Source: Escherichia phage vB_EcoP_R4596
Length of the DNA stretch: 45,130 bases
Reading direction: 5' to 3' (one strand)
Sequence record: MK373771.1
The notes under the pieces are model-generated. The model saw only the letters and a list, made by a program, of their open reading frames with translations, did no database searches and was not told where the DNA came from. The position numbers were made by a program, and so were the translations under genes. Positions 2,408-45,130 of this stretch are shown piece after piece (position 1 is the first letter of the stretch; every line of letters starts with the position of its first letter).

Positions 2408-3331
2408 ATGACTACTGAAAACACCCTCCTGTCTGTTCGTGAAGCTGCAACCGCTGAGATCAAGCAACACTTAGACAATATCGGCACTTCTTACATCAAA
2501 GTTGGCGCTTGTCTTAATGAGTTACGCGGTGACTTTGAAGGTCAAAAAGACTTTTTGGCTTATGTAGAATCAGAATTTGGAATCAAGAAAGCACAATGTT
2601 ACAAGCTGATGAGTGTAGCCCGTGTCTTTGAAGGCGATGATCGCTTTAAAGGCGTGGCGATGCGTGTAATGCTGGCACTTGTTCCTTTCGCTGATGAAAA
2701 TATCATCATGGAGAAAGCCGCAGAACTTGCCGCAGCGGGCAAGCTGGACACTAATGCCGTAAATGCCCTGATTGATCCTAAGAAAGAGACAAAGGCCGAG
2801 ACGGTACAATCTAAGGCTGAGGCGGTAAAACCGCAGGAGAATGCGACTGAGGCCGCAGAAACTATGCAAGGACATGCGACCTTTGAGGATTTCATCTTAG
2901 AGAAGGCGAAAGAGGAATTACAAAGTGTGCCGCCAGTAAGTGAGTCGGGTAACGACGAATCCGCACCGTGGGAAGATGAAAGCAAGCCGGAAGCGCCAAA
3001 GGCCGCGCCACTGGATAACACGGCTAACACGGAGAACGCCGCTATGTCTGGCCTACTGGCACAAATTAAGGCACTGACTGAGCAATTACAGGCAGCTAAC
3101 GACCGCATCGCCGCCCTAACCAGTGCACGGGAAAGTAAGAAAGCGGCTGCGCCTATGCTTCCGCAGTTTAAATCCTCTTGCTTCTACGCTCGCTTAGGCT
3201 TGAGCGCCGAGGAAGCAACGAAGAAAACAGCAGTGAATAAGGCACGCCGTGAACTGGTTAAACTAGGGTATGGTGAAGGTCATGAGGCATGGCCTTTGAT
3301 CTCTGAGGCAGTAGAAGAATTAACTAAGTAA
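2408..3331 (+). CDS. Hypothetical early protein (307 aa) with low-complexity acidic/Ala-rich centre and coiled-coil C-terminal region
   Basis: Long ORF; AAGGTGA Shine-Dalgarno before ATG 2408 (track begins at GTG 2399); no kinase or other motif recognized. Confidence 0.6.
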   Translation: MTTENTLLSVREAATAEIKQHLDNIGTSYIKVGACLNELRGDFEGQKDFLAYVESEFGIKKAQCYKLMSVARVFEGDDRFKGVAMRVMLALVPFADENIIMEKAAELAAAGKLDTNAVNALIDPKKETKAETVQSKAEAVKPQENATEAAETMQGHATFEDFILEKAKEELQSVPPVSESGNDESAPWEDESKPEAPKAAPLDNTANTENAAMSGLLAQIKALTEQLQAANDRIAALTSARESKKAAAPMLPQFKSSCFYARLGLSAEEATKKTAVNKARRELVKLGYGEGHEAWPLISEAVEELTK

Positions 3332-3394
3332 CCTTATCGGTGGCATCTTCTTAGGTGTCACCTATTAAGGTTTCTTTCACTAGGAGTAAACAAG

Positions 3395-6060: not shown

Positions 6061-6095
6061 ACCTATTACCTGTAACATTTCATTAACATAAACGT

Positions 6096-6111
6096 GTCTC
6101 ACATGTGAGAC
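6096..6111. repeat. 16-bp perfect palindrome GTCTCACATGTGAGAC (copy a)
   Basis: Read directly; immediately 5' of the promoter at 6113. Confidence 0.9.
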
Positions 6112-6112
6112 T

Positions 6113-6135
6113 TATTTACCGGACACTATAGGAGA
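6113..6135 (+). promoter_or_regulatory. Phage-RNAP promoter
   Basis: TTTACCGGACACTATAGGAGAG; matches the window consensus. Confidence 0.7.
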
Positions 6136-6278
6136 GCCGTCGGAGACGGGAAAGAGAAGGGAAGATAAAGGATATAAAGGAAGTAATAGGTATTAAAGGT
6201 TATATAGGTTTACCTAGGAATACCTATTACCTTCTTCCTTCCTCTTATTACCACTTAGAGGAAGGGCAGATCTAGGTT

Positions 6279-6294
6279 GTCTCACATGTGAGAC
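6279..6294. repeat. 16-bp perfect palindrome GTCTCACATGTGAGAC (copy b)
   Basis: Read directly; immediately 5' of the promoter-like sequence at 6299. Confidence 0.9.
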
Positions 6295-6298
6295 TTCG

Positions 6299-6479: not shown

Positions 6480-8468
6480 ATGGCTATTATTCAGAATGTA
6501 CCGTGTCCTGCCTGTCAAAAGAATGGACATGATATTACTGGCAACCATCTTATGATATTTGAGGATGGCGCTGGTTACTGTAATCGTGGTCACTTCCATG
6601 ATAACGGTAAGCCTTACTATCATAAGCCAGAGGGCGGCATCGAGATAACCGAATTGCCCATTACTGGCAATATCAAATACACACCTTCTCAATTCAAAGA
6701 AATGGAGAAGGAAGGGAAGATAAGCGACCCTAAGCTACGCGCCATCGCACTAGGTGGTATGCGTATGAAAGACCGTTGGGAGGTCATGAATGAGCAAGAA
6801 AGGGCAGAGCAAGAAGCAGAGTGGAAACTTGATGTTGAATGGTTCCTCACGCTTAAGCGTAAGAATCTTGTTTCCCGACACATTCGCGGCGACATTTGCG
6901 CATTGTATGATGTACGTGTCGGACATGATGAAGAGGGTAGAGTCTCACGGCATTACTATCCACGCTTCGAGAAAGGTGAACTAGTAGGCGCTAAGTGTCG
7001 CACATTACCTAAAGACTTTAAGTTTGGTCATTTAGGTAAACTATTTGGTATGCAAGATCTTTTCGGTATGAACACTTTGTCTCACGTGTTAGACAAGGGG
7101 AGACGAAAGGATTGCTTGCTTATTGTAGGCGGTGAACTTGATGCACTAGCAGCGCAGCAGATGCTCCTTGATTCTGCCAAAGGTACTAAGTGGGAAGGTC
7201 AGCCATACCATGTATGGTCTGTCAATAAAGGTGAGTCTTGCCTTGAAGAGATAGTGCAAAACCGTGAGCACATATCCCAATTCAAGAAGATTATATGGGG
7301 CTTTGATGGCGACGAGGTGGGGCAGAAGCAGAACCAACAAGCTGCTCGCCTGTTTCCTGGCAAATCCTACATCCTCGAATATCCATCTGGTTGCAAAGAT
7401 GCTAACAAGGCATTGATGGCTGGCAAGGCTAAAGAGTTTGTAGATGCATGGTTTAATGCCAAGTCATCTGATGAAGTCTTTGGTAGCCAGATTAAATCTA
7501 TCGCATCTCAAAGGGATAAGCTCAAGGCTGCACGTCCAGAACAAGGGCTGTCATGGCCTTGGCCTAAGCTAAACAAGGTAACGCTGGGTATCCGTAAGAA
7601 TCAGCTTATCATTGTAGGCGCAGGCTCTGGTGTGGGTAAGACTGAGTTCCTCCGTGAAGTAGTTAAGCATCTCATTGAAGAACACGGTGAATCTGTAGGC
7701 ATCATTTCTACAGAAGACCCGATGGTTAAGGTGTCCCGTGCTTTTATCGGTAAGTGGATTGATAAGCGTATTGAGCTACCGCCAACCAATGACCCGAAAG
7801 AAGATGGATACCGTGAGGTGTTCGACTATACCGAGGAAGAGGCTAACGCTGCCATTGACTATGTAGCTGATACAGGGAAGCTGTTTGTGGCTGACCTAGA
7901 GGGTGACTATTCAATGGAGAAGGTAGAGCAGACCTGCCTTGAGTTTGAGGCTATGGGTATTTCCAATATCATCATTGATAACTTAACGGGGATTAAATTA
8001 GATGAGCGTGCTTTTGGTGGGAAGGTTGGTGCACTTGATGAATGCGTCAAGCGGATTGGTACTATCAAAGACCGACACCCAGTTACTATATTCCTTGTAT
8101 CACACCTTACACGTCCTCCGGCAAACCGTACCCAACACGAAGAAGGTGGCGAAGTTATCCTTTCTGACTTCCGAGGCTCAGGAGCTATCGGATTCTGGGC
8201 ATCTTACGCCTTGGGCATCGAAAGGAACACGAGGGCAGAGACACTAGATGAGCGAACTACTACCTATATTTCCTGTGTTAAAGATAGGGATCAAGGGATT
8301 TACTCTGGTACTAAGATTATGCTTAAGGGTGACATCGCTACGGGCCGACTGCTAGAACCACAAGCCCGTACTAAGTCATTTGATACAGGTGAAGCAAGGC
8401 AACAAGAAGTACCTGATTTACCGGACACTATAGAAGAGACAACCTTTGACGATGAACAGGAGTTTTAA
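6480..8468 (+). CDS. DNA primase/helicase (T7 gp4-like, 662 aa)
   Basis: N-terminal Cys4 zinc motif CPACQ...CNRGH, Walker A GAGSGVGKTE, acidic C-terminal tail ending DDEQEF. Confidence 0.93.
   Translation: MAIIQNVPCPACQKNGHDITGNHLMIFEDGAGYCNRGHFHDNGKPYYHKPEGGIEITELPITGNIKYTPSQFKEMEKEGKISDPKLRAIALGGMRMKDRWEVMNEQERAEQEAEWKLDVEWFLTLKRKNLVSRHIRGDICALYDVRVGHDEEGRVSRHYYPRFEKGELVGAKCRTLPKDFKFGHLGKLFGMQDLFGMNTLSHVLDKGRRKDCLLIVGGELDALAAQQMLLDSAKGTKWEGQPYHVWSVNKGESCLEEIVQNREHISQFKKIIWGFDGDEVGQKQNQQAARLFPGKSYILEYPSGCKDANKALMAGKAKEFVDAWFNAKSSDEVFGSQIKSIASQRDKLKAARPEQGLSWPWPKLNKVTLGIRKNQLIIVGAGSGVGKTEFLREVVKHLIEEHGESVGIISTEDPMVKVSRAFIGKWIDKRIELPPTNDPKEDGYREVFDYTEEEANAAIDYVADTGKLFVADLEGDYSMEKVEQTCLEFEAMGISNIIIDNLTGIKLDERAFGGKVGALDECVKRIGTIKDRHPVTIFLVSHLTRPPANRTQHEEGGEVILSDFRGSGAIGFWASYALGIERNTRAETLDERTTTYISCVKDRDQGIYSGTKIMLKGDIATGRLLEPQARTKSFDTGEARQQEVPDLPDTIEETTFDDEQEF
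8415..8438 (+). promoter_or_regulatory. Phage-RNAP promoter inside the 3' end of the primase/helicase gene
   Basis: GATTTACCGGACACTATAGAAGAG. Confidence 0.65.
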
Positions 8469-8629
8469 TGGAAATTATTAAACCAGTATTGAATATCGGT
8501 ATTGAGATCCTATTCATGCTTGTGATCGCAGATTATGCTGCACGATATGGATTCAAGAAAGCTGTGAAACTTATCGTTGCATCTGGTTTTCTTATGTCAA
8601 TGTTCTTTATTGTAACACGTCTTATCTAG
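8468..8629 (+). CDS. Small hydrophobic membrane protein (53 aa)
   Basis: ATG overlaps the primase stop (TAATG); translation MEIIKPVLNIGIEILFMLVIADYAA... is hydrophobic. Confidence 0.4.
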   Translation: MEIIKPVLNIGIEILFMLVIADYAARYGFKKAVKLIVASGFLMSMFFIVTRLI

Positions 8630-8646
8630 TGTATTTATCAGGGCTT

Positions 8647-8662
8647 GTCTCACATGTGAGAC
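8647..8662. repeat. 16-bp perfect palindrome GTCTCACATGTGAGAC (copy c)
   Basis: Read directly; flanks extend the potential stem to about 12 bp. Confidence 0.9.
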
Positions 8663-8701
8663 AGGCTCTTATTAAGTACATTAAATAACTGGAGATTGAT
8701 T

Positions 8702-9653: not shown

Positions 9654-9840
9654 ACACAGCCTTAAGATGTTTGATGGTCATGAAGACCTGCAAGCACAAA
9701 TTACTAACCAAGCCTTCCTGTTTGCACAGTTAACTATGGCTGAAGCAAAGAAGAACAGCCTTACTCGTGAGCAGATTATCAAGGAAGGTAGCCGTGGTGT
9801 TACTCGTCGTACCAAGAACCACAGAAGTGGTGCTCGCTAG
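9643..9840 (+). CDS. Hypothetical protein (65 aa)
   Basis: ORF overlapping the upstream gene end; weak ribosome-binding site. Confidence 0.35.
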   Translation: MQNKHSLKMFDGHEDLQAQITNQAFLFAQLTMAEAKKNSLTREQIIKEGSRGVTRRTKNHRSGAR

Positions 9841-9857
9841 TCGATAAGTCAAGGGTT

Positions 9858-9873
9858 GTCTCACGTGTGAGAC
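9858..9873. repeat. Palindrome variant GTCTCACGTGTGAGAC (copy d, 15/16)
   Basis: One substitution in the central tetranucleotide; flanks AAGGG...CCTTT can extend the stem. Confidence 0.85.
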
Positions 9874-9998
9874 AGCCTTTCATCATATTGATTGGAGGTG
9901 CATTATGCCACGTGATTATGATTCTGATTGGGACTACTATGACTCAATGAATCCAAAACCCGAACGTTCAGATGATTACTACGAAACAGAGGCAATGT

Positions 9999-12545: not shown

Positions 12546-12729
12546 TGGATAGATTAGATATTGTTTGCTTGTTCTTTACCTTCTTTCTTGTCTTTCTTAT
12601 GCTTGCTTGTTATGGAAGTATTCAGGTAAATATACCTGATGAAGAGGAAGGATACGACTGAGTTATACTCAAGGTCACTTACGAGTGGCCTTTATGAATA
12701 ACTTACTCCTACTTATTTTGTCTAACATG

Positions 12730-12752
12730 ATTTACTGGACACTATAGAAGGA
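12730..12752 (+). promoter_or_regulatory. Phage-RNAP promoter
   Basis: ATTTACTGGACACTATAGAAGG. Confidence 0.75.
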
Positions 12753-14391: not shown

Positions 14392-14392
14392 A

Positions 14393-14408
14393 GTCTCACA
14401 TGTGAGAC
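14393..14408. repeat. 16-bp perfect palindrome GTCTCACATGTGAGAC (copy e)
   Basis: Read directly; 2 nt after the stop of the 14170-14391 gene and 14 nt before the promoter. Confidence 0.9.
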
Positions 14409-14422
14409 AAATCGGTGTCCAG

Positions 14423-19796: not shown

Positions 19797-20006
19797 ATGG
19801 GTGTCGTGAAGAAGGCATTTAAAGCAATTGGTCTTGCACCTGAGACGCCGAAAATTGAGGCGGCTAAGACTCCGGCACAACAGTTAGCGCGTGAACCGGA
19901 GACTACGGCAGAGGATATTACATTAGGCCAAGATGATAGCGCAACGGCTGCGGCACGTGGTAAGCGTGGACTGATTCGTCCAGTGGCATCGAGCTTAGGG
20001 GTTTAA
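19797..20006 (+). CDS. Small virion-associated protein, possibly gp6.7-like (69 aa)
   Basis: AAGGAGG Shine-Dalgarno; located just before the portal gene; composition loosely like T7 gp6.7. Confidence 0.45.
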   Translation: MGVVKKAFKAIGLAPETPKIEAAKTPAQQLAREPETTAEDITLGQDDSATAAARGKRGLIRPVASSLGV

Positions 20007-20205
20007 TATGATGCAAGACACCGACCTTGAGTATGGTCTCCGGCACAACAGTTAGCGCGTGAACCGGAGACTACGGCAGAGGATATTACATTAGGCCAAG
20101 ATGATAGCGCAACGGCTGCGGCACGTGGTAAGCGTGGACTGATTCGTCCAGTGGCATCGAGCTTAGGGGTTTAATATGATGCAAGACACCGACCTTGAGT
20201 ATGGT
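19870..20205. repeat. Perfect tandem duplication, 2 x 168 bp (19870-20037 and 20038-20205)
   Basis: Direct reading; the unit spans the 3' end of the 69-aa gene and the first 10 codons of the portal gene. Confidence 0.95.
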
Positions 20206-21726
20206 GGAAAGCGGTCGAAGATACCTAAGTTGTGGGAGAAGCTATCTACTAAGCGCAATCCTTTCATGGACAGGGCAAAGCACTATGCGAGGTTGACTTT
20301 GCCATACCTCATGAATGAAGAGGGAGACAACAATACTTCTCAGAATGGGTGGCAAGGTGTAGGTGCGCAGGCCACTAACCACTTAGCTAACAAGTTAGCA
20401 CAAGTTCTCTTCCCTGCTCAACGCTCTTTCTTCCGAGTTGACTTGACGGCAAAAGGGGAGAAGATATTAAACAATAGAGGTCTTAAGAAGACCAAATTAG
20501 CTACGCTGTTTGCTCAAGTAGAGACTGCTGCTATGAAGCAACTAGAGCAGCGGCAGTTCCGCCCAGCGGTGGTGGAGTGCTTCAAGCATTTGATTGTTGC
20601 AGGTAACTGTATGCTATACAAGCCAAGCAAGGGTGCAATCAGTGCTATACCTATGCATCACTATGTAGTTAATCGAGATGCTAATGGGGAACTGCTGGAT
20701 ATTATCTTACTACAAGAGAAGGCGCTAAAGACATTCGACCCTGCAACTCGCATGGCTATTGAAGTAGGCATGAAAGGTAAGAAGTGCAAAGACAGTGATA
20801 ATGTAAAACTCTACACACACGCCAAGTATGAGGGTGAAGGTTTTTGGGAATTAAATCAATCAGCAGATGATATTCCTATTGGTAAATCTAGCAGAATCAA
20901 GGCTGATAAACTCCCATTCATCCCCCTTACTTGGAAGAGGTCGTATGGTGAAGATTGGGGTCGCCCTCTTGCAGAGGATTATTCTGGAGATTTATTCGTA
21001 ATCCAATTCCTGTCTGAAGCGGTTGCGCGTGGCGCTGCTTTGATGGCAGACATTAAATACCTGATTCGTCCAGGTGCTCAGACAGATGTAGACCACTTTG
21101 TTAACTCAGGAACAGGCGAAGTAATCACTGGTGTGGAAGAGGACATCCATATCGTACAACTAGGCAAGTATGCAGACCTAACACCAATAAGTGCTGTACT
21201 AGAGGTTTATACCAGACGCATCGGCGTAGTCTTTATGATGGAGACTATGACACGACGAGATGCAGAACGTGTAACTGCTGTAGAGATACAGCGAGATGCT
21301 CTTGAGATTGAGCAGAACATGGGTGGCGTATACTCACTCTTTGCTACGACTATGCAGACACCCGTGGCTATGTGGGGTTTGCTTGATGCCGGAGACTCTT
21401 TCACCAGTGACCTAGTAGATCCTGTTATCATCACAGGTATTGAAGCATTAGGTCGCATGGCAGAGTTGGATAAGCTGGCTAACTTCGCTCAGTATATGGC
21501 ATTACCTATGAGTTGGCCTGAGCCAGTACAGGCAGCAGTGAACTGGCCTGATTATATGGATTGGGTTCGTGGTCAGATCTCCGCTGAACTTCCATTCCTA
21601 AAATCAGAAGAGCAGATGAAGAAAGAGCAAGCACAGATGGCACAAGCACAGCAAGAGCAGATGCTTAATGAAGGAGTAGCTAAAGCTGTACCTGGTGTCA
21701 TTCAACAAGAACTTAAGGAGGCGTAA
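20176..21726 (+). CDS. Portal (head-tail connector) protein (T7 gp8-like)
   Basis: WQGVGAQATNHLANKLAQVLFP matches T7 gp8 WQAVGARGLNNLASKLMLALFP as recalled; expected size and position. Confidence 0.9.
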   Translation: MMQDTDLEYGGKRSKIPKLWEKLSTKRNPFMDRAKHYARLTLPYLMNEEGDNNTSQNGWQGVGAQATNHLANKLAQVLFPAQRSFFRVDLTAKGEKILNNRGLKKTKLATLFAQVETAAMKQLEQRQFRPAVVECFKHLIVAGNCMLYKPSKGAISAIPMHHYVVNRDANGELLDIILLQEKALKTFDPATRMAIEVGMKGKKCKDSDNVKLYTHAKYEGEGFWELNQSADDIPIGKSSRIKADKLPFIPLTWKRSYGEDWGRPLAEDYSGDLFVIQFLSEAVARGAALMADIKYLIRPGAQTDVDHFVNSGTGEVITGVEEDIHIVQLGKYADLTPISAVLEVYTRRIGVVFMMETMTRRDAERVTAVEIQRDALEIEQNMGGVYSLFATTMQTPVAMWGLLDAGDSFTSDLVDPVIITGIEALGRMAELDKLANFAQYMALPMSWPEPVQAAVNWPDYMDWVRGQISAELPFLKSEEQMKKEQAQMAQAQQEQMLNEGVAKAVPGVIQQELKEA

Positions 21727-27844: not shown

Positions 27845-30787
27845 ATGGCAATTGAACGTCAAGCTGTACAAGGACTAGAAAGAGTACAGTCAAGGGGCGC
27901 GCCAACACCTATGTCTTTCACACCACGACAAGTGAGTATCTCAGGGGGCGCGGATGCCTCCGGTAGTAGATTTTTGGAAGACTTAGTAAACGCTGCAAGT
28001 AGTGTGGCTGATGTCACTACTGCTATCCTTAATCAGCAAGTAGAAGACGATAAGGTTCGCCAGATGGATAGGGCTTTGTCTGGCATGATGCCTTCTGAGG
28101 ATGCTACGGTAGGTGGTGCTCGTGCGCATATGCTGGTTAGTTTACAAAATGATGTAATCGCACAGACAACTGCGCTACAAGTAGAAGCACAGCGATTTCA
28201 AGGTAGTGACGAGGATTGGGAAAACTATGTAGTTCAATCTCGTAATGAGGTACAAAATAGGTTATGGCAAAGTTATCCAGAGCTTCGTGGTGACAAAGAT
28301 TCTATGAGACTTGTCACTAACGCGTTCATGGAGCAGCAACCTAGAATTACTGCAACTAGAGCAGAGGCTAAACTTCGTCAAGAAGAAGAAGCACGAATGC
28401 AATCTATGCAGTCTCGTATTATCATGGCTACACGGGACGTAGCGCCAGATGCCACTGGTGCAGCACTCATCCAGTTACAAAAAGAAGCACTGGCGATGGG
28501 TCTTAGTAAACCTGAGTTTGATCAGATGGTTGCTAAGATTGCATCTGACAGAGCGGCAGTAGGAGATGATAGTCTTATTCAGGGAACCAAAGCACTGGTG
28601 GATGATAAGGGTGTCTCTTTGTATGACCGTGTTGGTGCTTTGCAAACTGGAGAGATTCAAGCTAACAGAGCTTGGGCTGCGCAGAATCAGGTTGCCCTCT
28701 TTGAGAAGAAGGATGCAGCTATAAAGGCATTCGATGCAGGGCAACTTACTCGTGAAGAGTTACTTCAGGTGATGCAGAATCACAATGAATTGACTGGTGG
28801 TACTGCTTGGTCTGATAGCGAGATCAAGGCTATCTTCGATAGGCAAGCTAAGGCTAATGCAGAGAAAGCAAAGCTCGAAGATCTTATTGCACGAGGTGAA
28901 TCTGGGTCGCCTTTAGGTTTACAGGATATTAGTAAGGATGACAGAAAATCCTATGCTGAAGCCTTAGTTAGTACCTACACTAAGTTGGCAGAAGATGAAA
29001 TTGCCCGTACTGGTGCAACGGGAGAACAGGCTGAAGCTATTCGCGGTAGGTATGAGCAGATGCGTTATCTTAAATTAGGGCAACAACTTATTGAAGACCC
29101 AATCATTAAGGAAAGATATTCGTCGCTTATGCAATTATCCTCTGCCAACCTTAAAGATATGAATGTTGAGCCTGAAGCATTACAGACCATCATGCGAGCG
29201 CGGGACTCTATTCCAGAGGATGCACGTCGTGCTGTCATGGGAGACAAAGAGTATGCCTTTGTAGAGAACTACGACCTAGCAACTCGCATGGGGTATAACG
29301 CAGGTCAAGCTATTGAGTTTGCACAGAATGCCTCTCGTGGAGAGAAGCTACAAGGTTCTGTACTTAAAGAACTGAATGATGATGTAGATGGAGTTGTAAG
29401 TGATGTGGCAGGAGGTAGTTGGCTTACTCGTGGCGATAATATGAGTGAGATGGGTCGTGACATTATGATGGAGGAGGCAAGTACAATTGCGAGAGCAATG
29501 AAGGTTGCAGGTCATAATAATGACACGATTAAACGTCATCTTAAATCCTATTTGACGAGCCAGTATACACAGTTATCAGAGGGCTTCTTCACCCAAGGTG
29601 TTCTGGTGAAAGGTGATGTACGAACATTAGGTGACACTATAGGAGTAAACCAGAATGACCTTCCTATGGCGCTACGTCAATATATGGATAACAACAAGCA
29701 AGCACTTCTTGATGCATCAGGTGGCTTAGAAGAGGGTGATTTGTATTTTGATGTAGATGCGCAGCGGGGACTCTTTACCATACGTGCAGGGTCTGGTCGT
29801 GTACCTGTTACGCAGGCAATGCCTTTGTCTGAAATCAAAGGGCAGTCCTTGCTTAAGCAAAGATATGATGCAGAGGTTAAAGCCCGTGATGAGGGGCGTA
29901 AGAATTTTGAAGCACAGCAAATGAGGATGTGGGGCGCAGGTGGCTACCAAGCACAACCACCTGCAAAGACTACAGCCAAAACTGTAGGCTCCCGTGGGAT
30001 TGCTGACTTCTTAATGTCACCTGCCTTTGCATCAGGCGAGAATCTACCAGCAAACTTTGAGTTTGGATATAAGAGGAATAATATGGACTTCTACAATTAT
30101 GTAGCCAAGATGGAGAATAATGCCAATGTGGGCTTTGACCGAGTAGCTGGTGTTTATACACCATACAAAGATGCACATGGTCAATCTGTCGGGTACGGTC
30201 ACTTCCTTACTACTGAAGAGAAGAAGAACGGATACATTATGATTGGTACAGAGAAAGTGCCATTCACTCCGGGACAATCTCAATTAACACCAGAACGAGC
30301 CATGCGCCTTCTACAGCAAGACTTGAAGAGTCATGTGCCAAACACTTCAGGGTGGGCTGTTCCATTCGAAGAGATGCACCCAGGTGTTCAGCGTGGCCTT
30401 ATGGACTTGTCCTATAATTTAGGCAAAGGAGGTATCCAGAATGCACCTAAAGCCTATGCTGCGTTTAAGGCTGGCAAGTTTACTGATGGATTTATTGAGA
30501 TGTTATCTACTGCATCTACTGAAGGTAAGCGTAGTACTGGGTTGTTGGTTCGTAGGGCAGAAGCATACAACCTTGCACAGAGTGGAGGTGCTATTCCTAA
30601 GATTAGTGAAGTAGAGACACGAGCCGATGGGTCTATGTATGTTAAGTTTGCAGGACAGATGTCAGAGGCTTTCGTAAATAAATCAATCTACAATCAGATT
30701 GGTAAGGATGGATGGCTGCAAGTGTACCCTCCAAAACAAGGTGTACTTGCACCTAACACCAAGATTGGTAGAATCAAACTAAGCTAG
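27845..30787 (+). CDS. Internal virion protein with C-terminal lysozyme-like (GH24) domain
   Basis: Position; C-terminal MENNANVGFDRVAGVYTPYKDAHGQSVGYGHFLT...GVQRGLMDLSYNLGKGG resembles the T4-lysozyme Glu/Asp/Thr core as recalled. Confidence 0.75.
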   Translation: MAIERQAVQGLERVQSRGAPTPMSFTPRQVSISGGADASGSRFLEDLVNAASSVADVTTAILNQQVEDDKVRQMDRALSGMMPSEDATVGGARAHMLVSLQNDVIAQTTALQVEAQRFQGSDEDWENYVVQSRNEVQNRLWQSYPELRGDKDSMRLVTNAFMEQQPRITATRAEAKLRQEEEARMQSMQSRIIMATRDVAPDATGAALIQLQKEALAMGLSKPEFDQMVAKIASDRAAVGDDSLIQGTKALVDDKGVSLYDRVGALQTGEIQANRAWAAQNQVALFEKKDAAIKAFDAGQLTREELLQVMQNHNELTGGTAWSDSEIKAIFDRQAKANAEKAKLEDLIARGESGSPLGLQDISKDDRKSYAEALVSTYTKLAEDEIARTGATGEQAEAIRGRYEQMRYLKLGQQLIEDPIIKERYSSLMQLSSANLKDMNVEPEALQTIMRARDSIPEDARRAVMGDKEYAFVENYDLATRMGYNAGQAIEFAQNASRGEKLQGSVLKELNDDVDGVVSDVAGGSWLTRGDNMSEMGRDIMMEEASTIARAMKVAGHNNDTIKRHLKSYLTSQYTQLSEGFFTQGVLVKGDVRTLGDTIGVNQNDLPMALRQYMDNNKQALLDASGGLEEGDLYFDVDAQRGLFTIRAGSGRVPVTQAMPLSEIKGQSLLKQRYDAEVKARDEGRKNFEAQQMRMWGAGGYQAQPPAKTTAKTVGSRGIADFLMSPAFASGENLPANFEFGYKRNNMDFYNYVAKMENNANVGFDRVAGVYTPYKDAHGQSVGYGHFLTTEEKKNGYIMIGTEKVPFTPGQSQLTPERAMRLLQQDLKSHVPNTSGWAVPFEEMHPGVQRGLMDLSYNLGKGGIQNAPKAYAAFKAGKFTDGFIEMLSTASTEGKRSTGLLVRRAEAYNLAQSGGAIPKISEVETRADGSMYVKFAGQMSEAFVNKSIYNQIGKDGWLQVYPPKQGVLAPNTKIGRIKLS
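29624..29646 (+). promoter_or_regulatory. Candidate intragenic phage-RNAP promoter
   Basis: CATTAGGTGACACTATAGGAG matches the SP6-type core TTAGGTGACACTATAG. Confidence 0.4.
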
Positions 30788-30804
30788 TGGTATACTCAAG
30801 GTTT

Positions 30805-30820
30805 GTCTCACATGTGAGAC
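30805..30820. repeat. 16-bp perfect palindrome GTCTCACATGTGAGAC (copy f)
   Basis: Read directly; between two internal virion protein genes; flanks AAGG...CCTT and a following TTTATGAAT shared with the hairpin at 12648. Confidence 0.9.
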
Positions 30821-30854
30821 ATGCCTTTATGAATGACACTGACTAGGAGGTAAC

Positions 30855-40859: not shown

Positions 40860-41549
40860 ATGCTGGGAGTAACAGGACAACGCAATAAGAATGTAGCCAC
40901 CAAAGTAGTGGCTGATTTAGCTACTGCTGCTACTGTCGAGGAATTACGAGACACACATAACTCTATTAACCGTGCTGACCTTTCTGGTAAACAAGAAGGT
41001 TCTGTTGTTCTTGTTAAGAAAGAGGATGGCAACTATTCTATCTTTGTAGCAACAGGTAGCAAGCCTACTGATGTTTGGAAAGAGTTGTCTCCAACAATAC
41101 CAGAGCAAGAGATGCCTGCTGAATATATTGATATGGTTGATATTCAAATTCATCAAGACTCTGCAAGTAACTTACGTATGGATTCTTCTCGCACGAGCTT
41201 AATACAAACACCAATGTGGGATACTGAAGGTGAATTGCTATTCCGTAATACCCTGAGCGCAACATGTTCTTGTACCATTCTTGCTGATGGTGCATCTGGT
41301 GTTCGTCAGGATTTTAATTTTAAGATTAATGGAATCTTAGAGCAAGAAGAGCAGTATTATGACATTGACACTCTTATGTGCTCTATTCATTCTGCAACAA
41401 CAACTAATGGTCTTACACTGTGTATGCCAGATGTTAAGAGCGCAAAGACCAATAAGATGGTAGTAAAGGTCGACACTATGCAGTCATTAACAATGAGTTT
41501 TGATCTTAACTTCCTTGTTGAATGGACGTCACCTACGAGGTTACTATAA
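40860..41549 (+). CDS. Paralog 3 of the triad with about 135-aa C-terminal extension (229 aa)
   Basis: LSGKQEGSVVLV...YSIFVATGSKPTDVW at the N-terminus; AGGAG ribosome-binding site; start overlaps the previous stop. Confidence 0.65.
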   Translation: MLGVTGQRNKNVATKVVADLATAATVEELRDTHNSINRADLSGKQEGSVVLVKKEDGNYSIFVATGSKPTDVWKELSPTIPEQEMPAEYIDMVDIQIHQDSASNLRMDSSRTSLIQTPMWDTEGELLFRNTLSATCSCTILADGASGVRQDFNFKINGILEQEEQYYDIDTLMCSIHSATTTNGLTLCMPDVKSAKTNKMVVKVDTMQSLTMSFDLNFLVEWTSPTRLL

Positions 41550-42438: not shown

Positions 42439-42465
42439 TACATAACGTTATGTATCAGTGTCTTA

Positions 42466-42489
42466 TGATTTACTGGACACTATAGAAGG
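42466..42489 (+). promoter_or_regulatory. Phage-RNAP promoter upstream of the tailspike
   Basis: GATTTACTGGACACTATAGAAGGG followed by 5' hairpin CCGCTC-GTTTGA-GCGGAC. Confidence 0.75.
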
Positions 42490-42570
42490 GATAAAGATAG
42501 TGCCGCTCGTTTGAGCGGACTATTACTAGCCAATCTTCATAGGGAGGATTGGGAAGTAATAGGAGAATTT

Positions 42571-44391
42571 ATGGCTAAACTAACGAGAGTCACTGACTGG
42601 CTTGTTAAGGTGAAGTCTAGACTCATTGGTGCAGTAGAGAGATTGCTTGAAGATAAGCTATCTGACATGGTTAGTGTTAAAGATTTTGGTGCTAAAGGCG
42701 ATGGTGTTACAGATGATACACAAGCCTTCCTTGCAGCTTACAATGCTAAGAAGCAAACAGGAGGTAAGATCTACATACCGGAAGGTACTTACATTGCTTA
42801 CAATATCCCACTAGACAGTGGTATTTATTGGCAAGGTGCTGGTGTGGGTGCAACGACCATAACACAACCTAATGGTAACAACAAAGATATCTTTGTAACC
42901 AGAGACTTTAATACCCTCACAGGTGTTGGTTATCTTAAGGATGCACCTATTGGCTTCGGCATCAAAGATCTAACTGTTGATGGTAATTATCTTGCAGATT
43001 ATAAGAGTGCCGCCATTGGTGGTGACACTGTTATGAATAACGAGAAAGGCTATGGAGTTAAGATCTTTGGCTCTAAGTACACTATAGACATTGAGATAGT
43101 CAACTGTGCTCAGGTAGGTTTCTACAGCGAAGCTGGCGACTATACAGGTTATGGTGATGAGCAGGCTTGTCATGTGAACTTACGTGGTAGGGTCTTCGGG
43201 AAAGAAGCAATCGTGCATCGTGGCCCAGCTGACATAGAGTTTGGTCAGGTATTTATGGGGTCTGCTGCATGGTTGCCTACCCTAGCACAGCGCAGATCTA
43301 ATCTTGTCATGTCTGAACTCTTTGAAGGTGAACCTGTTCATGTCATGGTTACAGATGAGACAGAGGGTTATCATGGTCATCATGAGTTTGAGACTATGCA
43401 CCTTTATGGCAACCTGTCTGGTTATGGATATTATGCCAAAGGCACTGGTCGTCTGAAAGGCAACCATCTCATTTGTGAGAACTGTCGTGGTGGGTTCAAG
43501 TCAGATACCCGTACATGGGGTAAGATTAGTCTGTTAGAGTGTCATAACAATGGTCGTGCTCCATCTGCTTTAGCAGGAACTTTACCTAAGTTCTACGACA
43601 TTCATAACTTATCTCGTCAAGGTTTTGTTATTGATGCAGTAGTTCGTCGTGTTTCTGTAGAATCTTCTGAATATACTGCATTACGAGATGAAGGTCGTAA
43701 TAGTGTAGTAAGAATGTCTTACTTCGTAGCAGGTTCAGATGCAGAAGGTGCAACCTCTGGTAATATGGCAGAATTACTTAGTGAATCCTCTACGTTTGAT
43801 ATTAACTGTGTGAACACCAAAGACCATGCAGTTCTTCTGGAGGGAAAGGCTAACAAGGTTAATATTGTATCTAAGAACCACTCTGGTGACAAAGCATTGA
43901 TTAAGAGGGTAGCTGGCTCTGCTTCAGGTAACTTATCTAACTCTATAGAGATAACCTGTAATAATGCTTCCAGCATTATTCATCTTGATGGTCTTGTTAC
44001 CACTGAGCGATGGGATGTGTCTGGCTTGCTCAAAGAAGGTCAGACTATCTTCTCCTCTGATAGCTCAGTGATGGATTTGTATAACCGTGCAGTTGTTACT
44101 AACTTGTCTGTACGTATTGGTTCTAAATCCAAGAGTAGTAGAGATGTTGGTCGTGTTAATCTAGAGAATACAGCAGGGCAGAAGTCTGTTACTGTAGAGC
44201 ACAACTACTTCATTAAGCCTGATGCTTCTCAGATTACATTAGGTTGCTATGACCCTGACCCGACACTACAAGATAAGCTCAAGTACCTACGTGTAAGTAA
44301 TATCACAGATACTGACTTTACAGCAGTATACGAATTGGAGCAAGGTGAACAGCCAAGTGGCCCGATTGTTATGACTTGGGGTATCTTCTAA
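42571..44391 (+). CDS. Tailspike / putative polysaccharide depolymerase (beta-helix, pectate-lyase-like)
   Basis: VSVKDFGAKGDGVTDDTQAFLAAYNA is typical of right-handed beta-helix glycanases; likely ATG 42571 after AGGAGA (track begins at TTG 42511). Confidence 0.8.
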   Translation: MAKLTRVTDWLVKVKSRLIGAVERLLEDKLSDMVSVKDFGAKGDGVTDDTQAFLAAYNAKKQTGGKIYIPEGTYIAYNIPLDSGIYWQGAGVGATTITQPNGNNKDIFVTRDFNTLTGVGYLKDAPIGFGIKDLTVDGNYLADYKSAAIGGDTVMNNEKGYGVKIFGSKYTIDIEIVNCAQVGFYSEAGDYTGYGDEQACHVNLRGRVFGKEAIVHRGPADIEFGQVFMGSAAWLPTLAQRRSNLVMSELFEGEPVHVMVTDETEGYHGHHEFETMHLYGNLSGYGYYAKGTGRLKGNHLICENCRGGFKSDTRTWGKISLLECHNNGRAPSALAGTLPKFYDIHNLSRQGFVIDAVVRRVSVESSEYTALRDEGRNSVVRMSYFVAGSDAEGATSGNMAELLSESSTFDINCVNTKDHAVLLEGKANKVNIVSKNHSGDKALIKRVAGSASGNLSNSIEITCNNASSIIHLDGLVTTERWDVSGLLKEGQTIFSSDSSVMDLYNRAVVTNLSVRIGSKSKSSRDVGRVNLENTAGQKSVTVEHNYFIKPDASQITLGCYDPDPTLQDKLKYLRVSNITDTDFTAVYELEQGEQPSGPIVMTWGIF

Positions 44392-44398
44392 TATCAAA

Positions 44399-44422
44399 GC
44401 AGTGCGCAAGCACTGCTTTTCT
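44399..44422 (+). terminator. Rho-independent-type terminator after the tailspike
   Basis: GCAGTGC-GCAA-GCACTGC then TTTTCTC. Confidence 0.65.
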
Positions 44423-44489
44423 CGCAACTTCCCTTGAAGCAATCTAGCGATACCTTCAAGGGAATAGCTCAAGAAAGCAAGGAGGTTTG

Positions 44490-44639
44490 ATGCCGTTGAT
44501 CAAATCAGTTAAGCAATCTGCTGTACGCCAGAACACAGAAGAACTTATTCAATCAGGGCGTGACCCTAAGCAGGCTTATGCCATTGCCAAGGATGTACAA
44601 CGTCGTGCCATGAAGAAACCTTCTGCATCTTCTGCGTAA
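44490..44639 (+). CDS. Small basic protein (49 aa)
   Basis: Strong AAGGAGG ribosome-binding site; below the ORF-track length cutoff. Confidence 0.4.
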   Translation: MPLIKSVKQSAVRQNTEELIQSGRDPKQAYAIAKDVQRRAMKKPSASSA

Positions 44640-44709
44640 GCAGGTTCATATCTTAGTGTACACAAGGGCAGACTTAGGTTTGCTCTTAGTGTAATCCAAA
44701 GGAGGTAAC

Positions 44710-44808
44710 ATGGATAAGATTACTATTGATAAGCCAACATACTACCTGTTATGGGCTGGTTGTATCTTGAATGTCACAGGTTTTATCTTATGGTTGTTCA
44801 TGAAATAA
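44710..44808 (+). CDS. Small hydrophobic peptide (32 aa)
   Basis: AAGGAGG ribosome-binding site; MDKITIDKPTYYLLWAGCILNVTGFILWLFMK. Confidence 0.3.
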   Translation: MDKITIDKPTYYLLWAGCILNVTGFILWLFMK

Positions 44809-44845
44809 CCAAAGTGAAAATTTTGATATAGGCGTGTGTCAGCTC

Positions 44846-45130
44846 TCTCGCCCTCGCCCTCGCCGGGTTGTCCCCATAGGGTAGCCTGAGGGAATCCGTC
44901 TCCGACGGGCAGGGCTGATGTACTCTTTGTACTAGCTTAGTAGTACACAAGGGCTGGCCTTTTGTTTTGCCGTGTACTAGTAAGGTGGAACGCTGTAGAC
45001 GGCCTAGGACGGCCTAGGGAATGGCTTAGTGGCGGACAAGGTGATTGCCTTAGTGAAGCCTCTTAGCGCATTCCTGAGGCCATTCAGGGCGTTTATGAGG
45101 TATTGACAGGGTGTGCGTGGGTGTGGGCTA
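44846..45130. repeat. Right direct terminal repeat (identical to 1-285)
   Basis: Direct reading; truncated by the window end. Confidence 0.9.

Follow-up and report, generated by a model that had tools for sequence, protein, structure and literature searches.

A hairpin behind the tailspike terminator of Escherichia phage vB_EcoP_R4596 and its relation to the tailspike module of SP6-like phages

The hairpin and its position at the right genome end

The sequence record MK373771.1 holds the complete genome of Escherichia phage vB_EcoP_R4596, an SP6-like podophage (Molineuxvirinae, Vectrevirus type), and the whole stretch of 45,130 base pairs (bp) is referred to here as the window. Near its right end, between the tailspike gene and a small gene homologous to gene 48 of K1-5 and SP6, the window carries a hairpin whose arms TTCCCTTGAAG (44429-44439) and CTTCAAGGGAA (44454-44464) are exact reverse complements, forming an 11-bp stem with the 14 nucleotides (nt) CAATCTAGCGATAC in between. 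A reading of the sequence alone had proposed a perfect 11-bp-stem hairpin at 44429-44464, placed after the tailspike terminator and before the open reading frame starting at 44490, and both the structure and its placement were confirmed. The genome is bounded by a direct terminal repeat of 285 bp (1-285 and 44846-45130, 100% identity). At this right genome end the nearest relatives are Raoultella phage vB_Ro_P3a and several Escherichia phages, K1-5, K1E and SP6 being more distant. The elements of the locus are the following.

42465..42490, + strand: last SP6-type phage promoter, ATTTACTGGACACTATAGAAGGG (repeat family D2/D3 and pattern search), before the tailspike gene
42571..44391, + strand: tailspike gene, 606 amino acids from ATG 42571, stop codon 44389-44391, frame open from TTG 42511
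44396..44424, + strand: terminator-type hairpin AAAGCAGTGC-GCAA-GCACTGCTTT, first dyad of the module, then TCTC (U-rich tail)
44420..44428, + strand: single-stranded linker TCTCGCAAC joining the two hairpins; (A)CGCAAC is kept across genera
44429..44439, + strand: 5' arm of the hairpin, UUCCCUUGAAG, pyrimidine-rich, homologous to CUUUUCUUAAAG of K1-5/SP6
44440..44453, + strand: apex of the hairpin, with a 2x2 internal loop (CA/AC), a 3-bp helix AUC/GAU and the loop UAGC
44454..44464, + strand: 3' arm of the hairpin, CUUCAAGGGAA, exact complement of the 5' arm
44465..44489, + strand: spacer UAGCUCAAGAAAGC, Shine-Dalgarno AAGGAGG (44479-44485) and UUUG, up to the start codon of gene 48
44490..44639, + strand: gene 48 homologue, 49 amino acids, ATG 44490, downstream of the hairpin
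44846..45130, no strand: right copy of the terminal repeat, 381 bp from the hairpin

When folded as RNA, a 44-nt stretch with the hairpin reaches -18.1 kcal/mol, compared with -5.8 +/- 2.1 for 200 shuffles (z = -5.87, 0/200 equal or better), and within the apex AUC (44442-44444) pairs with GAU (44449-44451). A census of perfect hairpins with loops of 3-30 nt counted two genome-wide whose stem has 11 bp or more, against 0.15 per dinucleotide-shuffled genome, a rarity that is unusual and, taken alone, not decisive. The only other such hairpin, GTAATAGGTATT / AATACCTATTAC with a 24-nt loop, is located at 6183-6230 in the promoter-rich early region. The hairpin behind the tailspike stands above chance because the same structure recurs in seven other genomes or contigs, because a structural homologue is present across the subfamily, and because substitutions in it are compensatory. 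Up to E = 10, no Rfam covariance model matched anywhere in 44000-45130. A recurring protein-binding motif was ruled out, since the genome holds no second copy of the arm sequence. An SP6-type promoter at the hairpin was likewise ruled out, as nothing nearby matches the consensus ATTTACTGGACACTATAGAAG.

About a dozen SP6-type promoters with the consensus ATTTACTGGACACTATAGAAG occur genome-wide; a pattern search returned 10 copies against 0.01 expected, the last of them at 42469-42488. Transcription from the promoter at 42465..42490 yields the RNA in which the hairpin is found. From 42469 to the genome end, the promoter scan and the pattern search found no further sigma-70-like or SP6-type promoter. 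Since there is no promoter in between, the RNA of the hairpin and genes 48 and 49 are present only on transcripts that read through the tailspike terminator, whose stem of 10 bp (44396-44419) is followed by TTTTCT. Tandem terminators are common at operon ends, and a stable hairpin placed right after a terminator could be a second terminator or a pause hairpin backing up the first. However, the stem is followed by AAUAGCUC and not by a U-run, the terminator scan was negative at the hairpin, and genes 48 and 49, like spike 2 in the relatives, depend on the read-through for want of a promoter of their own; a terminator or pause function is thus most improbable.

The tailspike contains a pectate-lyase-type domain (Pfam PF12708 and tailspike PHROGs). 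The gene 48 product belongs to PHROG 2423 (E = 1.3e-23), with homologues in SP6-like phages that include gene 48 of K1-5 and SP6, and an exact look-up of the 32-residue gene 49 product returned no record. The tailspike frame stays open for 32 codons past its TAA (44392-44490), up to a TGA (44488-44490) which overlaps with the gene 48 ATG; with a chance expectation of ~0.2, this is probably a coincidence. An antisense open reading frame at 44287-44472, overlapping the 3' end of the spike gene and the module, was dismissed as a real gene for want of support. In the tailspike leader (42503-42561), two hairpins follow the promoter. The second one, which spans 42521-42561 and has ~17 bp and an internal loop, reaches as far as the Shine-Dalgarno, giving the order hairpin, hairpin, Shine-Dalgarno, as in the intergenic module. 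Genes 48 and 49 have a conserved stem-loop between them (ACACAAGGGCAGAC-UUAG-GUUUGCUCUUAGUGU, 44659-44693, z = -3.1), which is flanked by the direct repeat CTTAGTGTA; the SP6 version has the same place and other stem bases.

A homologous stem-loop in the tailspike modules of relatives

A sensitive DNA search with the terminator and the 5' arm (44399-44439) gave matches in about 70 phages, located between their two tailspike genes and not before gene 48. For instance, the matching segment of K1-5 (41273-41313) lies between gp46 (K5 lyase) and gp47 (endosialidase). The recurrent module is composed of the spike-1 stop codon, a terminator hairpin, the linker (A)CGCAAC, a second hairpin, AAGGAGG and the spike-2 ATG, and is present in Vectrevirus (K1-5, K1E, K5, T147P9, SHAK7163, CrRp3), in Zindervirus (SP6, Kenya-K30), in four Proteus Acadevirus phages and in about ten Klebsiella phages. 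Its terminator hairpin is kept with compensatory changes in SP6 (GGCAGCGC/GCGCTGCT) and in the Klebsiella and Proteus phages. Alignment of the spike-2 N-terminus, too short and variable, was of no use for finding the locus. Scholl et al. 2001 reportedly noted two dyad symmetries in the 85-nt intergenic region of the K1-5 tail-protein genes and, together with Scholl et al. 2004, is said to describe the second dyad-symmetry element in the intergenic region of K1-5, K5, K1E and SP6. No paper dealing with the SP6/K1-5 tailspike intergenic region, or with sites for RNase III in SP6-like phages, came up in our full-text literature search.

The hairpin of the window holds the position of the second hairpin of this module, behind the spike stop codon, the terminator and (A)CGCAAC (44389-44428), and its lower stem is made of the tract CUUYYCUURAAG and its complement. 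It lacks the 7-bp upper stem and the apex YCA-NNN-UGR (UCAUGGUGG), the apex being CAAUCUAGCGAUAC here, and its 3' arm does not run into the Shine-Dalgarno of a second tailspike. Like the second dyad of K1-5, K5, K1E and SP6, it is found at the same place in the module, belongs to the sense transcript and closely precedes the next ribosome-binding site; unlike that dyad, it has no upper stem and no YCAUGGUGG apex, its lower stem is perfect and GC-richer, the stem stops 14 nt before a Shine-Dalgarno that the others overlap, and the next gene is gene 48. The conservation in relatives by which the sequence-only reading had proposed to check the hairpin is thus borne out, by identical copies in seven other genomes or contigs and by a homologue in the corresponding position throughout the subfamily. 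Where two spikes are present, gene 48 either adjoins the end of spike 2 or overlaps it, without a hairpin; Klebsiella phage cp4 has a single spike, which gene 48 follows directly and likewise without a hairpin. In cp4 and VR702, a promoter and a first hairpin, then the family hairpin, precede the single spike.

The common form of the family hairpin, type A, reads UUUUCUUAAAGGUUAUCA-NNN-UGGUAGCCUUUCAGAAAA and has 18 positions, with one U.C mismatch and two G.U pairs among them. K1-5, K1E, the LL11-type phages, SP6 and CrRp3 differ from one another only in the 3-nt loop and in one A to G change, which turns a U-A pair into U.G. Covariation was assessed with 17 distinct family variants, for which RNAalifold returned the same two-part stem with compensatory changes in 7/15 pairs. 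Over the full structure of 18 pairs, 86.8% of the cells are paired; controls in which the partners were displaced by 1-3 columns gave 39-59%. Cells with a double change number 34 and never exceed 8 in these controls, and none of 500 column shuffles came up to the observed values. Furthermore, the family folds better on the sense strand because of its G.U pairs: type A reaches -19.7 kcal/mol in sense and -10.7 in antisense orientation, S16a -20.0 and -7.1, and the advantage amounts to 5-13 kcal/mol in the type A, Klebsiella, S16a and Proteus forms and to ~3 in cp4. This strand bias points to RNA rather than DNA. Collectively, the comparisons indicate selection on the family hairpin as an RNA structure of the sense strand. 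At the base of the family stem, the pyrimidine tract CUUUUCUU is predicted to pair with purines that run into the spike-2 Shine-Dalgarno. The predicted pairing over AAGGAGGU averages ~0.6-0.7 in most type A phages and 0.9-1.0 in two of them; most Proteus phages have 0.7-0.85 and most Klebsiella phages 0.93-1.0.

The form found in the window, type B, is carried also by vB_Ro_P3a, by vB_EcoP-101117UKE2, -101118B1, -G3A1, -CC1 and -CC2, and by a few metagenomic contigs. All its carriers have one tailspike, with gene 48 following the module, and the module copies are 98.9-100% identical, forming a narrow clade. Types A and B were compared arm to arm, without gaps, as follows.

5' side: type A CUUUUCUUAAAG, type B CUUCCCUUGAAG, 9/12 identical
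3' side: type A CUUUCAGAAAAG, type B CUUCAAGGGAAU, changes in step with the 5' side

From type A to type B, three pairs have changed on both sides, namely U-A to C-G at 44431/44462 and at 44432/44461 and A-U to G-C at 44436/44457. In addition, the U.C mismatch is repaired to U-A at 44435/44458 and the basal C-G pair is lost. The perfect 11-bp stem is accordingly the old lower stem, tightened and GC-richer; the old 7-bp upper stem and its UCAUGGUGG apex (YCAUGGUGG) have decayed to the 2x2 loop and 3 bp. A MAFFT alignment that put the 3' arm of the window opposite the apex of the relatives was set aside, since the ungapped comparison explains both arms by paired transitions. One further change of this kind was found within type B. 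In the 44.7-kb Logan contig L300, whose flanking 600 nt differ by ~5% from the window, 44432 C to T and 44461 G to A together convert one C-G pair into U-A; the chance that two substitutions in a 22-nt stem form a compensatory pair was estimated at ~0.02-0.03.

These changes bear on whether the hairpin is a mere relic, that is, the lower stem of a spike-2 leader hairpin that was stranded by deletion of spike 2 and has no present function, its perfection coming from recency, from hitch-hiking with a recombining cassette flank or from template-switch correction of the palindrome. Such a relic would fit the confinement of type B to a narrow clade with 98.9-100% identity over the module, the loss of the RNase III-like upper stem and of the Shine-Dalgarno overlap seen in relatives, and the occurrence of gene 48 in other phages without such a hairpin. 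However, the three double substitutions and the repaired mismatch keep or improve the pairing relative to type A while the apex decayed, the contig L300 shows an exact compensatory pair at the above chance of ~0.02-0.03, and the stem has gained stability instead of eroding. We therefore regard a functionless relic as fairly unlikely.

Further searches for type B brought few additional copies. A search with the window's own spike returned one contig, with an identical hairpin. The exact hairpin pattern had no match in IMG/VR, the terminator pattern found four loci there, all of type A, and a search of IMG/VR by the gene 48 protein gave no further type B copies; the exact gene 48 protein is present in 146 index blocks. 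The loose pattern CGCAACTTNNCTTNAAG produced chance matches in IMG/VR and the metagenome collection, and only type A was present among the matches listed after filtering; the apex 16-mer GCAATCTAGCGATACC had only chance matches in IMG/VR and bacterial genomes, e.g. in Streptococcus. Three metagenome contigs of 45.4 kb from ENA (L297, L301 and L370; ERZ27237829, ERZ27238062) come from near-identical relatives of the window phage that have the same 606-residue tailspike and an identical hairpin; in them, gene 48 is immediately followed by an inserted gene resembling NUMOD4 homing endonucleases.

RNase III, recombination and genome-end processing

Processing by RNase III had been put forward in the sequence-only reading. 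In such a case, host RNase III would cut the stem and separate the tailspike mRNA from the gene 48/49 mRNA, leaving the former with a protective 3' hairpin, as at T7 R0.3-R18.5. To model such sites, those of T7 were folded and a covariance model was built from seven of them (R0.3, R0.5, R1, R1.1, R1.3, R4.7 and R18.5). Their positions and cuts were taken to be those of Dunn and Studier, and the cuts so placed fall in the expected 3' internal loop. Upon folding, the T7 sites share the frame CUCAAGG-stem-CCUUUAU^GAU. With this model, the homologous hairpins of SP6, CrRp3, K5, K1E, K1-5 and BigMira score 16.5-19.3 bits, SP6 being highest at 19.3. These matches are weak in a 143-kb search (E = 0.1-0.6), and E = 2.5e-4 is reached when the SP6 intergenic stretch alone is searched; the matches of the homologous hairpins are confined to the sense strand and are among the best sense-strand matches in the loci compared.

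The hairpin of the window itself is different. In 44380-44520 the model leaves it unmatched, the best scores being 7.4 bits for the terminator and 3.1 bits for a spurious alignment. Its distance from stem to start codon, 25 nt, is within the 22-61 nt range of the T7 sites. Its total length of 36 nt is about the size of the 34-nt hairpin described as the minimal RNase III substrate (PMC1540722). [quoted passage not shown]

The resemblance to the T7 sites is partial. The hairpin is, as they are, an intercistronic structure on a polycistronic mRNA, 20-60 nt before a start codon, and the AAGG...CCUU frame of the upper stem is shared by the type A form, at 18-19 bits; the window copy is unmatched, does not have the two-stem architecture with an internal loop, and probably falls short of two helical turns. 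The proposal of an RNase III site thus holds as a likeness of the homologous SP6, K1-5 and K1E hairpins (18-19 bits) and fails for the window copy, with its helix of only 11 + 3 bp. Although the homologues match the model and strong sites are present elsewhere in the window, as described below, cleavage of this hairpin by RNase III appears quite unlikely.

Elsewhere on the + strand of the window, the T7-derived model matched 12653-12711 (49.7 bits, E = 3.7e-9), 30780-30846 (33.5 bits, E = 3e-5) and 2333-2390 (23.6 bits, E = 0.007). Judging by these matches, this SP6-like phage appears to carry RNase III processing sites of the T7 type. The segment 12653-12711 reads UAUACUCAAGGUCACUUACGAGUGGCCUUUAUGAAUAAC and is located just upstream of the promoter at 12731. 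Weaker matches on the same strand were seen at 1540-1596, 9833-9899, 8622-8688 and 3321-3381, and the weaker matches include the GTCTCACATGTGAGAC palindrome family. Seven palindromes TGTCTCACATGTGAGACA were found, at 6095-6113, 6278-6296, 7078-7096, 8646-8664, 9857-9875, 14392-14410 and 30804-30822; several of them lie immediately upstream of phage promoters, and in three cases the palindrome makes up the upper stem of a weaker or stronger RNase III-like match. A further repeat of this genome is a perfect 168-bp tandem duplication (19870-20037 and 20038-20205, 100% identity), lying before and into the start of a 516-codon open reading frame (20176-21726), which is either real or an assembly artefact.

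The position of the hairpin also raises the question of an element acting at the DNA level, such as a cruciform or hairpin for genome-end processing or packaging, or a dedicated site for recombination in tailspike exchange. Near-identity to relatives, also to those with different spikes, stops at ~42730 and resumes at 44399, i.e. at the terminator, so that the receptor-binding part of the spike (~42730-44398) is a variable cassette, which has no near match in the phage collection. At the level of DNA, the module is a conserved right-hand flank for tailspike exchange, with the hairpin marking the right edge of the cassette. A DNA element would agree with this exact coincidence of the module with the right limit of the variable spike cassette, and with the location 381 bp left of the terminal repeat; Chung et al. 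1990 reportedly described a T7 hairpin intermediate near the right end during concatemer processing. In two-spike phages such as K1-5, K1E and SP6, however, the homologous element is 2.5-3 kb from the terminal repeat, between two genes. The G.U pairs of the family and its better sense-strand folds point to RNA, the arm sequence has no other genomic copy, and homologous recombination needs identity rather than a stem, its breakpoint being at the terminator and not at the hairpin. A role in the DNA is thus very unlikely, and the suggestion of a cis element tied to the right genome end did not withstand the comparison with homologues located 2.5-3 kb from the repeat, between the spike genes, where the window copy is at 381 bp.

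In the Escherichia phages St11Ph5 and vB_EcoP_ShWW44 (72.4 kb), a gene 48 homologue with 88% DNA identity occurs at 63840-64037, where it adjoins a tail protein gene of an unrelated, larger podophage. This similarity points to movement of the spike-adjacent region from one group of phages to another.

Possible role in the gene 48 leader and history of the hairpin

On the read-through mRNA, the hairpin occupies the untranslated part that separates gene 48 from the tailspike terminator, and its stem ends 14 nt before the Shine-Dalgarno of gene 48. The earlier suggestion that the leader of this last small gene holds a regulatory site is largely correct, in so far as the stretch is an untranslated leader and its pairing has been kept by compensatory changes. 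The predicted pairing probability of AAGGA in the window is 0.01-0.31, or ~0.1 as compared with 0.6-1.0 in the spike-2 leaders of relatives. When either arm was shuffled in silico, the pairing of AAGGA rose from 0.10 to about 0.5 on average. Immediately downstream, an 8-bp hairpin GGUUUGAU/AUCAAAUC (44484-44491 / 44499-44506) takes in the final Gs of the Shine-Dalgarno as well as the AU with which the start codon of gene 48 begins, at a predicted pairing of 0.97-1.0; according to this folding, it could limit translation of gene 48.

The sequences show the hairpin itself, its place on read-through RNA, its homology with the second stem-loop of the SP6/K1-5 tailspike module, its compensatory evolution and its lost likeness to RNase III sites. 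These features lead us to propose, at about even confidence, that the hairpin is the type B form of this stem-loop and that it presently acts as a structural insulator or stabiliser. The stem would lock the pyrimidine-rich 5' arm onto the purine-rich 3' arm, so that neither could pair with the ribosome-binding region of gene 48. Furthermore, a stable helix between the cistrons might block exonucleases, or define or cap a processed end. Stem-loops in 5' leaders are known to stabilise or insulate mRNAs of bacteria and phages, e.g. the 5' hairpin of ompA and the leader of T7 gene 10. The hairpin of the window resembles these in being a stable structure shortly upstream of an exposed, strong Shine-Dalgarno whose predicted accessibility needs the stem. 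They act at the very 5' end of a transcript, whereas the hairpin of the window is internal unless processing should create an end in the CGCAAC linker.

In two-spike relatives, the stem-loop is ~18-19 bp long and RNase III-like, and its base is predicted to pair with part or all of the spike-2 ribosome-binding site. In the lineage of the window, spike 2 is absent, the upper stem has decayed and the lower stem has been tightened into a helix that ends 14 nt before the gene 48 site. We infer that spike 2 was plausibly lost by deletion between similar ribosome-binding sites, as GGAGGTT is present in both the spike-2 and the gene 48 leaders.

Several observations weigh against an insulating or stabilising role. 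Gene 48 occurs elsewhere without the hairpin, in cp4 and in the two-spike phages, which indicates no general need for such a leader. The type B stem, composed of Watson-Crick pairs only, carries no strand information of its own (-18.1 against -20.0 kcal/mol). Within type B, a single independent compensatory event is available, the other seven copies being identical and adding nothing. Template-switch repair can also generate a perfect palindrome, or keep one perfect, in the absence of selection on the RNA. The argument for insulation is drawn from thermodynamic prediction only, and the literature search found no transcript, processing or expression data for this phage or its relatives.

A broader possibility, which we hold tentatively and consider rather doubtful, is that the stem-loop of the module is a general expression switch of SP6-like phages, of which type B would be a disarmed derivative. 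The stem would hide the spike-2 ribosome-binding site until host RNase III cuts it, and the yield of spike 2, hence the dual host range, would be tied to mRNA processing. After the loss of spike 2, the cleavable upper stem could have decayed while the lower stem was re-selected as a clamp keeping the old anti-Shine-Dalgarno tract off gene 48. Leader hairpins that occlude a Shine-Dalgarno and are relieved by RNase III are known from the lambda N leader and from the stimulation of T7 0.3. The form found in relatives is similar to these, since the base of its stem is predicted to pair AAG...GGAGG of spike 2 (0.6-1.0) and since it resembles an RNase III site. In the window, by contrast, the Shine-Dalgarno is outside the stem and predicted to be open, so that the logic of occlusion, if it operates in relatives, would be lost here.

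The genes of tailspikes set the host range and are the parts swapped most often, in nature as well as in phage engineering. The module forms the right junction of the spike cassette and brings with it signals acting on the mRNA, so that engineers should either keep this junction or redesign it deliberately. The hairpin of the window is a lineage-specific variant of an SP6/K1-5-type feature known since K1-5 and SP6 were first sequenced, which is in itself a modest result. Taken together, a selected RNA helix, its RNase III-like cover of the spike-2 site in most relatives and the remodelled version in a lineage without spike 2 lead to a concrete hypothesis on how the expression of the spikes could be balanced. 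The main gain is an idea open to testing, namely that the family hairpin may couple RNase III processing to the translation of spike 2.

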